A stretch of DNA of 50,059 nt from a virus. Taxonomy: Duplodnaviria > Heunggongvirae > Uroviricota > Caudoviricetes. Position 1 is the first letter of the stretch; each line of letters starts with the position of its first letter. The stretch lies in IMG/VR virus record IMGVR_UViG_2582580752_000008; one strand, given 5' to 3'. Shown in pieces: positions 6,001 to 9,000 of this stretch. A program made the position numbers.

Positions 6001-9000
6001 GTTTTTTAAAGTCATCTTCATCGTAGCCAGCATCGTCAATCGCAACAGCACCACGGGATATGGCAATGGATAATTTTTTCGCTTCAGCCCAGTAGAAACC
6101 GCCTTTAATACCGAGACGTTTTCTTACTTTGTCATTTTTTGCTTCGTAATACAGTGGGTAAACTTGTTTATCGGTGCTCATTGTTTTTTTAACCTCAACT
6201 TAGATTAAAATTACTGCGAGTGATGAATAAATGTCCCAGGTTCTTCACTCAGGCCTGCACAGTGTGCAGGCTTTCTTTTTTTTCAGATTTCACCCTTTGA
6301 TTTCATTGCAATCAGAGTTGCCAGAAATTCGGCTTTTTTTTCTGCGGGCAGATTCTTTCCGATATGCACCAGGCACATTTTTTTGACGCCTTCGTTAAGT
6401 GTTTTAACGTTGCCTGATGGACCGTCGATATCAACCACAGTGAAAGGGGTTTCTTTATTTTCTGTTTTAATCACGTAGCCAATACGCTTTCCTTCCAGGC
6501 TGACTTCGTGAACAATGTCATCAGTAGTAACAACAGTGGCTTCATAACTGGTAATCATGTTTTTCTCCTTAATTAAGGTTGAGCGAATCCCTGCCATTGC
6601 TGGCATAAATTCAGTTTCGGATAGTCAGTTAATTAAAGTTCGTGTGCCATCTGGTCTTTTTCGGCACAGATTTCACTACAATATTTTTTCATTTCCGTCG
6701 TTGGTATAACTCCACGCATGAAATGAAGTGGTCTTGTAATGATTTTGCTTTCTTCAATTTCTTTATTGCAAAGGTGATAAGCACATTTTATTTTCTTAGT
6801 CATTACCATGACTCCGCCTTTACAGGTAAACCATCACGACCGAGGAAGACTCTAATCATGCAGTCAGAAATGCATGTTTTTGTAGTCAGGCTACGAATAT
6901 AAAGTTTTCGCTTTTTAATATTGTTTGCCGAGGCGATATATGTCCGACCTTCATGAAGAACATAATCGCCAGGGGTCACACACTGACGTGGTATTTCATC
7001 AGTTCCGAAGTGATGAGCAATCATAATTATCTCCATTTTTACAAATGAATTTTGTCGATGCGGTGCCTGGTGCCTCCAGGTGACGTTAACCAGTTAACAA
7101 TTAACGCCGGATACAGAGAATCCACCCATAACACTGTTTTTGGTTTTAACTGTTCCGCGTGCGCTTAGCCGCATTCACCGCATCACAAAATTCACTTTAA
7201 AAAGGGCGGCAGAGCAGCCACGGAGTAAAACTGATACCGCCAAACGTCACCAGAAAATTGATAACAGAGGGCGTTGCAGCGGGGTTGTCACTTAAGCGTA
7301 TGGTCAACCTGACAACCCGGTGTCCTCAACGGGGAAGGAATAACCCCGCCATACTTACCGCCGCGCCATTTCGCGGAGTGCCACAACCGGAAGCGCACGT
7401 TCGAAGAAATCTAACGACAAGCCTTCTGAGGGAAAGAGCTTCGCCGTACGCTTTCGCGTTATGCCCTGACTTTTCAGGGAAATATCCTTTCAGTAAACTG
7501 TCAGTACCGGATTCTTATCCGTGTCCGGCGCACGACCACACGTGACAGCGTGTTGGTCTCCATTTTTAACCCAGAACCTCAATGGAGGATAAAATGCCAA
7601 ACAAAAAAGAAATCCGCTTATTGAAAAACAGATTGAATGCCTGGTAAATCAACTCAGGCAATCAGGGTTATTAAAAACTCATTCAGAGTTGAGGCTCACA
7701 GAATCAGCATTCGACGATAAATTAAATAATGTCCTTTATAATGGCATTATTGATTTTAATCGTTCTGTTGGTCGCCGCGGCCCTGCTGGTGTTTCCTTAT
7801 AATTACCAGTCAATCCAGAGTGGACCGTGTTCAGCGTAAATATAACTGTACACATCCAGATTATATTTGTGGTCTGTTAAGAACAGGCCGCAAATACATG
7901 CCGAAGCTTCCAGTGCAGCGGCTCTGTTACTGAATAACCATGTAGCAACATTCCAGCGTTTTTCTGCATCCCAGTCTTTCTCAAGGCCTGATACCATGAA
8001 GAAACCGTTAGTGTTGCCATCAAATAATTCTGTTTCCAAATTTTTAAGCAATGCCTGATGGACTCTTGCCAGGTATTCCGCCGGAATTTCGCCACGAATT
8101 CTGATGAGATTGTCATAAACAAACATGTTCCCCGCATATGGCGATTTTTCTTTCTTGTTTTTTAAACCAGCATCATGAGCAAACTGATCAATTTCTTCTT
8201 CCGTTGGTTTCGTATTGATGTTTTGCGCTGTCGTTTCTGCAATTTTATTTGCCACACTCTCTGAGTCGTGTTTATTTATAGACGCACAGAAATACAATCC
8301 GGTAAACGCATCGCGCACATTACGAGCTATATTATCAGTGTCTTTTTTCGTTACCGATTCCAATTCAAGTTCGTTCAGACGATGACGAAGTGTGTGTGCT
8401 GCAATCTCCTGGATTGAAGGAGGTAAATCTTTAAATTCCATCGTCAACCTCATTAGTCGGAGTTTCTTGCTAACCAGCGATGCGCGCCAGCTTCGGTTTT
8501 AAACGATTTGCTTTTGGTATACGTCATGGCGGTGAATGTGCCGTCCTGATTGGGAAACACGCCACATACCAGAGATTCGTTGTTGCCAAGATCGATAGTA
8601 TCCATGTTGACCTCATTTCCCCTTAACGCCGGGTGGCGGAACGTTTTATCTACTGCGCTTTGTATCAATCAACAACTGCCGTCATGTTCGTATGCCTCAG
8701 GCTGGCTACTTAGCCCTGTTCAGTGGCTGGATAACTCGAGGTATTGTCCAGCCGTTCTCTGGTGGGGCGTTGTTTGGATATGCTTATTAAACACAATGCG
8801 TTTTCTTATGTCAACACGAAATGTGTTTTGTGGTGGGTGTCATATGATGATGGTACAAAAAAGCCCGCTGATAGCGGGCTGATTGGCATATTACTGTGAT
8901 AGCAAGATCATTACTCCGGTGGGGGATTATCTTTAAGCCTGCCTCTCAAATATTTTTCTACATACTCATCGATTTCTTTTAGCCGGACTTCAAATAGCTC

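Follow-up and report, generated by a model that had tools for sequence, protein, structure and literature searches.

Which small RNA (sRNA) stands in front of the kil gene of a Rac-like prophage, and could it act there as it does elsewhere? In the Qin prophage of Escherichia coli K-12 the sRNA gene dicF precedes dicB. In a 50,059-nt stretch of Caudoviricetes DNA (IMG/VR record IMGVR_UViG_2582580752_000008; the whole stretch is called the window hereafter), an earlier note, made from the sequence without database searches, had placed a DicF homolog on the minus strand upstream of a Kil-type division inhibitor. We find a genuine dicF copy at this place and propose, with a probability of about 0.82, that it is a functional-looking gene in the early-left unit (PL-type, equivalent to the dicBp unit of Qin) of a Rac-family lambdoid prophage.

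Identity of the dicF copy and its setting

The whole window was scanned with Rfam, and the DicF model (RF00039) matched at 7255..7204 on the minus strand with 75.0 bits (E 7.9e-15), covering model positions 1–52 of 52 and passing the gathering score of 48. Compared directly with K-12 dicF (NC_000913.3 1649382-1649434), window positions 7256..7204 are identical at 52 of 53 nt, the sole difference being a G in place of A at position 39 (A39G), and a UUUUU run (TTTTT, 7203..7199) follows the hairpin directly. The single difference and the U-run are as the earlier note had described them, and the comparison with the family covariance model that it had proposed comes out in favour of its assignment. 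Judged by the Rfam consensus structure and by single-sequence folds, A39G converts an inner-stem U-A pair to U-G; the hairpin is kept (−15.4 kcal/mol, versus −15.9 for the K-12 allele), and the 5′ single-stranded region and the loop, which are the target-pairing parts of K-12 DicF, are conserved. A terminator scan reports 7221..7206 followed by CCTTTTTAAA, so that the 3′ half of the hairpin and the U-run together make up an intrinsic terminator, and the hairpin base and U-run are also present in Qin, in K-12 Rac, in Escherichia phage Evi (LR597642.1) and in the Shiga toxin (Stx) phage 75/02 from Shigella. The stretch 7256..7204 is a genuine copy of DicF, far beyond chance. Its G39 allele was also found in eight dicB contexts in IMG/VR and is thus not specific to kil.

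At these loci dicF is left unannotated in the RefSeq/PGAP records of the relatives and in the GenBank record of phage Evi, the latter bearing a spurious opposite-strand open reading frame (ORF) over DicF.

The gene that follows is kil. Its product is identical to K-12 KilR at 68 of 73 positions (93%, E 4e-53; five substitutions) and matches PHROG 294, ‘Kil protein for bacterial septation inhibition’ (E 2.8e-37); the identical protein WP_000560227.1 is named kil by RefSeq in close relatives, and a GGAG is located 7 nt 5′ of the ATG (7024). The Rac Kil protein keeps the FtsZ ring from forming (Conter et al. 1996, as cited in PMC3961180), and by analogy the window allele would do the same. Further downstream, the gene order kil-ydaE-racC-recE-recT-ralR-xisR-intR is that of K-12 Rac, with the RalA antitoxin RNA (1557-1735) accompanying ralR; the product of the ydaE-like gene is annotated as a YdaE family protein in the relatives. 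The window is closest to the Rac-like prophages of O145:H28 strains and of O157:H7 7.1_Anguil (99.5–99.8% over 25 kb). The 93% match to KilR and the Rac gene order bear out the proposed placement of DicF just 5′ of a Rac-type kil in a Rac-like early-left module. Pfam returned nothing for kil, for the 216-aa ORF or for the racC-like ORF, and PHROGs matched all three.

Upstream of DicF, the earlier note had described a non-coding leader of about 550 nt (7257-7802) in place of ydfB/ydfC-like ORFs. This description holds insofar as the sense (minus) strand contains no ORF of 40 aa or more in 7257-7802, but it requires two amendments. (i) The DicF-proximal part is retained from Qin. Blastn aligns window 7534->7044 with Qin (2603-3094 of the Qin locus, L003) at 93.7% identity over 495 nt, and the Qin counterpart extends from 60 nt past the ydfC stop to just before dicB; within this match, 7534..7257 is identical to the Qin ydfC-dicF stretch at 256 of 282 positions, and the Qin ydfC-dicF interval (340 nt) is likewise non-coding. 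The stretch matching the 190-nt DicF precursor agrees with K-12 at 187 of 190 positions, and the 5′ end of this RNase III-dependent species would lie at about 7393. The leader is thus largely a retained Qin processing leader and not a substitute for ydfB/ydfC. (ii) The distal part, 7593-7802, lies antisense to a phage ORF with a frameshift, and the position of ydfB/ydfC is held by this reverse ORF together with the 216-aa ORF (7803-8453). The reverse ORF is intact in O145 and O157 relatives, and its 69-aa product in one of them (L001; WP_001133037.1) gives a full-length match to PHROG 4274 (E 1.2e-51). The window copy has its frame broken by an A7-to-A6 change, one A fewer in the run at about 7603-7609, which could be a true mutation or a sequencing error; the leader transcript would be antisense to this ORF.

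Within the precursor, the 9-bp stem noticed earlier does exist (arms GGGTTGTCA and TGACAACCC, at 7318-7310 and 7290-7282 on the minus strand) and is found in the minimum-energy fold of the leader, but the coordinates first assigned to it, 7283-7319, were one base off. Qin and phage Evi have the identical stem, and phage 75/02 keeps the 3′ arm only; because it is invariant, covariation cannot assess it.

The leftward gene string begins with a DUF1391 gene whose product is 90% identical to YdfA and 82% to YdaF; blastp among the window products finds this ydfA homolog and no homolog of ydfB or ydfC. On its upstream side lies the repressor gene, ended by a strong terminator (8880-8862); its product is 29% identical to DicA and has no match to RacR. 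Between the two genes we recognized a putative promoter, strong and sigma-70-like, with a −35 element TTGACA (8817-8812), a 17-nt spacer and a −10 element TTTAAT (8794-8789), overlapped by two 16-nt palindromes (8813-8828 and 8789-8804; AACACnnnnnGTGTTT-like). Palindromes of the same family recur at 9342-9357 and 9388-9403, between the repressor gene and the cro-like gene. These palindromes probably serve as operators for this immunity type, and 8817-8789 looks like an operator-controlled early-left promoter. From this promoter to DicF, the terminator scan lists nothing terminator-like on the minus strand. The earlier claim that two FtsZ-targeting factors share one operon is plausible from this layout, in which DicF and kil would be co-transcribed. 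The features of the region are collected in Table 1.

Table 1. Positions of the dicF-kil locus and of its neighbouring genes in the window
Feature	Position	Strand	Basis
recE (exonuclease VIII)	3056..6181	-	Pfam Exonuc_VIII E 1.2e-37; recE in relatives
racC-like gene	6283..6606	-	96% to K-12 RacC over 91 aa; PHROG 4778
ydaE-like zinc-binding protein gene, overlaps kil stop codon	6633..6809	-	73% to K-12 YdaE
kil (Rac-type KilR, FtsZ inhibitor)	6803..7024	-	K-12 start codon; 73 aa
Conserved, apparently structured spacer (kil 5′ untranslated region)	7037..7203	-	156/160 identical to Qin (before dicB); 139/171 to K-12 Rac (before kilR); STnc100-like
DicF intrinsic terminator (hairpin 3′ half and U-run)	7199..7221	-	Terminator scan
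dicF (53-nt DicF sRNA, allele G39)	7204..7256	-	RF00039 75 bits; 52/53 to K-12
Qin-type processing leader 5′ of DicF, non-coding	7257..7534	-	Blastn to Qin, 93.7%
9-bp stem GGGUUGUCA/UGACAACCC, 19-nt loop, within 190-nt precursor	7282..7318	-	Sequence and minimum-energy fold
69-aa phage ORF, frameshifted	7593..7802	+	PHROG 4274; convergent with leader
216-aa ORF	7803..8453	-	PHROG 2151 E 1.4e-146; Pfam none
DUF1391 gene (ydfA/ydaF homolog), first of leftward string	8453..8668	-	Pfam E 6.9e-29
Putative early-left promoter and two operator-like palindromes	8789..8828	-	By eye; operator context
Prophage repressor gene, HTH_3, 139 aa	8911..9330	-	Pfam HTH_3 E 4.7e-13

A further ORF, of 36 strongly hydrophobic aa (MSFIMALLILIVLLVAAALLVFPYNYQSIQSGPCSA), is found at 7729-7839 on the plus strand in another frame, overlapping the 3′ end of the 216-aa gene; this candidate has no PHROG match.

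The joint between Qin-type and Rac-type sequence

The match to Qin is complemented on the downstream side by one to K-12 Rac: window 7219->6277 aligns at 89.5%, from the 3′ half of the sRNA hairpin through kilR, ydaE and racC. The Qin-like and Rac-like homologies overlap at 7219-7044, a segment comprising the hairpin 3′ half, the U-run and the spacer that separates DicF from kil. In three- and five-way alignments the window tracks Qin along the leader, across DicF and over most of the spacer, and switches to Rac a few bases before the ribosome-binding site of kil, exactly where Qin diverges to dicB. By these alignments the locus is a mosaic, in which a Qin-type leader and DicF are joined to a Rac-type kil-ydaE-racC-recET segment within a shared cassette. 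The hairpin 3′ half, U-run and spacer serve as a homology patch for exchange between Qin-type and Rac-type modules, and the dicF-kil junction, though uncommon, is what ordinary shuffling of phage modules produces.

The contrast drawn in the earlier note, that dicF precedes dicB in Qin but kil here, holds, yet an sRNA in front of kil has a precedent. In K-12 Rac the position of DicF is occupied by the annotated sRNA KilS (b4833; 4906-5003 of the Rac locus, L004, minus strand), which was predicted from RIL-seq data and verified by Northern blotting in the 5′ untranslated region of kilR (PMC8175672). On the DicF model the K-12 KilS region scores 39.1 bits (E 1.1e-5), under the gathering score of 48, and KilS of prophage Sp10 of strain Sakai (L009 13019-13074, minus strand) also scores 39.1 bits. 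KilS shares with DicF the GGCGG...CCGCC hairpin base and the U-run, and the two differ in the 5′ part and the loop; KilS therefore looks like a diverged DicF paralog in which these parts have been replaced. On this comparison, Rac-type modules normally bear a DicF-like sRNA before kil, and the window carries authentic DicF with its Qin-type leader in that slot. A third hairpin type, GGCGGACAUC...GAUGUCCGCC followed by a U-run, precedes the spacer and kil in Stx phage 75/02 (L007, about 3530-3592, plus strand), and the match of this hairpin to the DicF model is weaker than E 0.01.

Comparison with known systems places the window between Qin and Rac. With the K-12 dicBF region of Qin it shares the RNA (52/53), the terminator, a leader of about 280 nt, a spacer of about 160 nt, a DUF1391 gene in first position and a repressor-controlled leftward operon; unlike Qin, it has kil and no dicB-ydfD, lacks ydfB/ydfC, encodes a repressor only 29% identical to DicA and carries the G39 allele. 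With the KilS region of K-12 Rac, and also of Sakai Sp10, it shares the sRNA slot 5′ of the spacer, the kilR-ydaE-racC-recET order and 950 nt of downstream sequence at 89.5%, whereas the sequence 5′ of KilS has no relation to the Qin leader and the Rac neighbours there are sieB, ydaF and ydaG. The closest parallel in a sequenced phage is Evi, in which DicF (76.4 bits) stands directly before Kil: a 651-nt query is covered to 100% at 89.9% identity, and leader, DicF (allele G10/A39), spacer and Kil follow in the same order. Evi differs in its Kil, 81% identical to that of the window, and in its upstream genes.

Enterohaemorrhagic E. coli (EHEC) O157:H7 is reported to have four copies of dicF (strains Sakai and 86-24), the RNA playing a part at pchA (Melson and Kendall 2019, as related in PMC7873438 and PMC5069750), and the neighbours of DicF vary between prophages according to the text on Fig. 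9 of PMC5069750 and to PMC7873438. The window resembles this situation in that dicF occurs in several lambdoid prophages of Shiga-toxin-producing E. coli in varied contexts. The idea that one of the Sakai copies is the present locus, by way of the Rac-like prophage Sp10, was rejected, since Sp10 lacks the dicF-kil junction and bears KilS before kil instead.

We estimated how often each junction occurs by megablast against 5426 complete E. coli genomes, counting queries of which only the full junction gives at least 80% coverage; the counts are approximate. The Qin arrangement (leader, DicF, spacer, dicB) was detected in 3952 genomes and KilS-spacer-kilR in 1689, compared with 132 genomes (about 2%; mostly O145:H28, some O157:H7) for Qin leader-DicF-spacer-kil. 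The upstream half, running from the DUF1391 gene over the 216-aa ORF, the reverse ORF and the leader to DicF, is present in 546 genomes, many of them O157:H7, and therefore usually continues into sequence other than kil. Many O145:H28 and O157:H7 genomes share the arrangement itself, with 99.9% conservation. Among viral sequences, a scan of IMG/VR with an exact 52-nt DicF pattern containing two R positions retrieved at least 120 contigs; in the 109 with enough downstream sequence, DicF is followed by dicB in 104, by kil in two, by a 282-aa ORF and then kil in two, and by a Phd/RelE-like pair in one; these figures, which come from a capped scan, are approximate as well.

The three contigs with alternative cargo are L108 and L050, where DicF and the spacer are followed by the 282-aa ORF and then kil, and L085 (from 4385, plus strand), where they are followed by a Phd/YefM-like and RelE/ParE-like pair. 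In all three, homology ends just before the ribosome-binding site.

The spacer between sRNA and toxic gene

The segment between the U-run and the start codon (160–170 nt) consists of two near-invariant blocks with a variable, length-polymorphic middle between them. RNAalifold, applied to 40 distinct sequences, yields a consensus structure of 33 pairs in which 99% of cells are paired and four pairs show compensatory changes; two of 500 column shuffles reach four compensatory pairs, and all slid controls are 28–40% paired. The fold is closed by a 10-bp helix with the arms GUGAUGCGGUG and CACCGCAUCA (also written GAUGCGGUG/CACCGCAUC), which encloses two inner hairpins and a CCUGG-AGGCA-CCAGG hairpin. 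Covariation in this model lends the fold suggestive support, the events being few and mostly from one lineage, the Rac type.

The STnc100 model (RF02076) aligns with the spacer from end to end at 38.2 bits (E 1.6e-6), short of its gathering score of 47, and sub-threshold STnc100 matches are likewise obtained in the Qin, Rac, Evi, 75/02 and Sakai Sp10 loci. We therefore describe the spacer as resembling the STnc100 family and do not file it as a member. The two have in common the closing helix, a GGUGAAU motif and the UCACCnGGAGGCACCnGGCACC hairpin. Unlike STnc100, the spacer lies within an mRNA leader, reaching from a terminator to a start codon, and is not known as a separate sRNA. STnc100 and PasD have been described as related prophage sRNAs in a paper that mentions neither DicF nor kil (bioRxiv 10.64898/2026.05.13.724894).

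The window also contains a bona fide STnc100, at 20175-20368. With 142.7 bits on the plus strand, it stands beside AgvB (96.5 bits, minus strand), the pair occupying 20175-20430, 3′ of two tRNA genes (19153-19225 and 19329-19402) and 5′ of a 616-aa ORF (20578-22428). This ORF may be the SASA-family carbohydrate esterase that is annotated in the relatives somewhere under the 25-kb match. Other Rfam matches above gathering are RalA (1557-1735), sok (14656-14830), isrK with the C4 and c4-a1b1 antisense RNAs (17000-17200) and, at the window edge (49988-50059), the 5′-truncated ALIL pseudoknot of an IS3 element.

Several relatives carry a PGAP annotation, ‘cell division inhibition protein DicB’ pseudogene, at the place of the spacer (L001 7368-7451, which corresponds to window positions of about 7050-7133, minus strand). 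A tblastn search of the window with DicB gave nothing better than E 0.22, and we rejected the spacer as a coding N-terminal extension or as a dicB remnant for this lack of DicB similarity. A coding spacer is also ruled out by the middle part, which changes length out of frame between types, and by the blocks, which show no variation of the synonymous type. The annotated pseudogene is the spacer itself, translated in the frame which, in Qin, is by chance open 5′ of dicB, and not what is left of a dicB gene.

A broader reading of these loci, which we put forward tentatively and at slightly less than even odds, is that lambdoid phages reuse a cassette in which a variable sRNA head is mounted on a common terminator scaffold and followed by an STnc100-like leader and an exchangeable toxic cargo. 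The head would be DicF, KilS or the third seed/loop of the 75/02 type, KilS and DicF being paralogs that arose by seed replacement, and the cargo would be dicB, kil, the 282-aa ORF with kil, or the Phd/RelE-like pair. The spacer would then be a cis-regulatory RNA controlling the toxic gene that follows, and cargo would be swapped at the mosaic boundary.

Expression, alternatives and meaning

In K-12, DicF derives from the polycistronic dicBp transcript, from which RNase III produces a 190-nt species and RNase E the 53-nt RNA; terminated ydfABC-dicF and read-through dicB-ydfD transcripts were both seen, and an internal promoter was not found (PMC10448788). Transferred to the window, this scheme would run as follows. 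Upon inactivation of the repressor, transcription would begin near 8817-8789 and proceed leftward, crossing first the DUF1391 gene, then the 216-aa ORF and after these about 550 nt that are non-coding in the sense direction. RNase III would cut about 137 nt 5′ of DicF to give the 190-nt species as in Qin, and RNase E would then release the 53-nt DicF, the 3′ end of which would be set by its own intrinsic terminator. Because the window RNA is identical to that of K-12 except for the stem-preserving A39G, it is expected to act on the known targets, that is, together with Hfq it would repress ftsZ translation in trans and act upon xylR, pykA and, in EHEC, pchA. Read-through of the DicF terminator would continue into the structured spacer of about 165 nt and then into kil-ydaE-racC-recET, and the terminator would thereby cap the amount of toxic kil message. 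On induction, division would thus be blocked doubly, with the RNA lowering FtsZ synthesis and the protein blocking the FtsZ ring. Qin pairs DicF with DicB, two FtsZ-ring inhibitors in one operon; the logic of the window would be the same with Kil as the protein arm.

Several observations weigh against this assignment or limit its reach. Homology is the basis on which expression, cleavage sites, binding to Hfq and repression of targets are attributed to the window dicF. The upstream unit is unlike that of Qin, with the 216-aa ORF and the convergent ORF in place of ydfB/ydfC, and because of this difference the stability and processing of the long precursor could depart from those in Qin. An automatic promoter scan returned no minus-strand candidates; its rule demands an A at position 2 of the −10 element, and it omits 8817-8789 because the −10 element there has none. 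Pairing between DicF and ftsZ, calculated with RNAduplex, was dropped as evidence of targeting, with z = −1.17 and 42 of 300 shuffled DicF sequences equally good. Both alleles give −38.5 kcal/mol in this calculation, position 39 being unpaired and the energy the same for either, and KilS and the 75/02-type RNA paired with ftsZ no better than their own shuffles.

Could the conserved element act mainly in cis, with the DicF terminator and the spacer gating the toxic gene and the 53-nt RNA as a by-product whose role in trans is secondary? The conservation of hairpin base, U-run and spacer above that of the sRNA 5′ part and loop across the DicF, KilS and 75/02 types points in this direction, as do the near-invariant spacer blocks and covariation-supported fold in the 40 distinct sequences, the differing toxic cargo genes behind the cassette and the coexistence of terminated and read-through transcripts in K-12 (PMC10448788). 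Yet the seed and loop of DicF are near-invariant as well, as judged by the exact pattern in at least 120 viral contigs, which is unexpected if the terminator alone mattered, and trans targets of DicF are established by experiment in K-12 and EHEC (PMC5069750, PMC7873438). We consider it unlikely that the cis function is the main one; the two roles are not mutually exclusive, and gating in cis is compatible with the trans-acting gene that we prefer.

Less probable still is that DicF is an independent gene transcribed from a promoter of its own in the leader, as has been proposed for KilS, so that its expression in lysogens is uncoupled from induction and from kil. The accumulation of DicF in stationary phase in uninduced K-12 would fit such a promoter (PMC10448788), but primer extension and Northern analysis of the near-identical Qin leader identified dicBp as the sole promoter (PMC10448788), and the scan found no minus-strand sigma-70-like site in 7257-8700. 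We regard as very improbable that the window dicF is a silent passenger, a recombination-borne relic that is unexpressed or non-functional. The frameshift in the adjoining plus-strand ORF does speak of some decay; against this, all elements are intact and near-identical to the functional K-12 locus (precursor 187/190), the single substitution in the RNA preserves the stem, the promoter/operator region is kept, and kil, ydaE, racC and recE are open. The 99.9% conservation of the arrangement in many O145:H28 and O157:H7 genomes and its presence in a sequenced phage likewise count against a relic.

DicF itself, its multiplicity in EHEC prophages, its varied neighbours and lambdoid mosaicism are already known. 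A literature search on dicF with kil, kilR or Rac, whose reach left out key older and paywalled papers, turned up no paper with a dicF-kil junction or with a link between DicF and KilS. Taken alone, the finding adds little, as DicF is well studied, its spread among prophages is published and module exchange is expected. Even so, it records a coupling of DicF to Kil in place of DicB in about 2% of complete E. coli genomes and in at least one sequenced phage, and studies that delete ‘all dicF copies’, or that credit filamentation upon induction to one factor, should weigh this coupling. The apparent kinship of KilS, as a diverged DicF relative in the same operon slot, links two sRNAs that were left unconnected in the searched papers, and the comparison draws attention to the roughly 165 nt that separate the sRNA terminator from the toxic gene, a spacer with strong conservation and an apparent structure.

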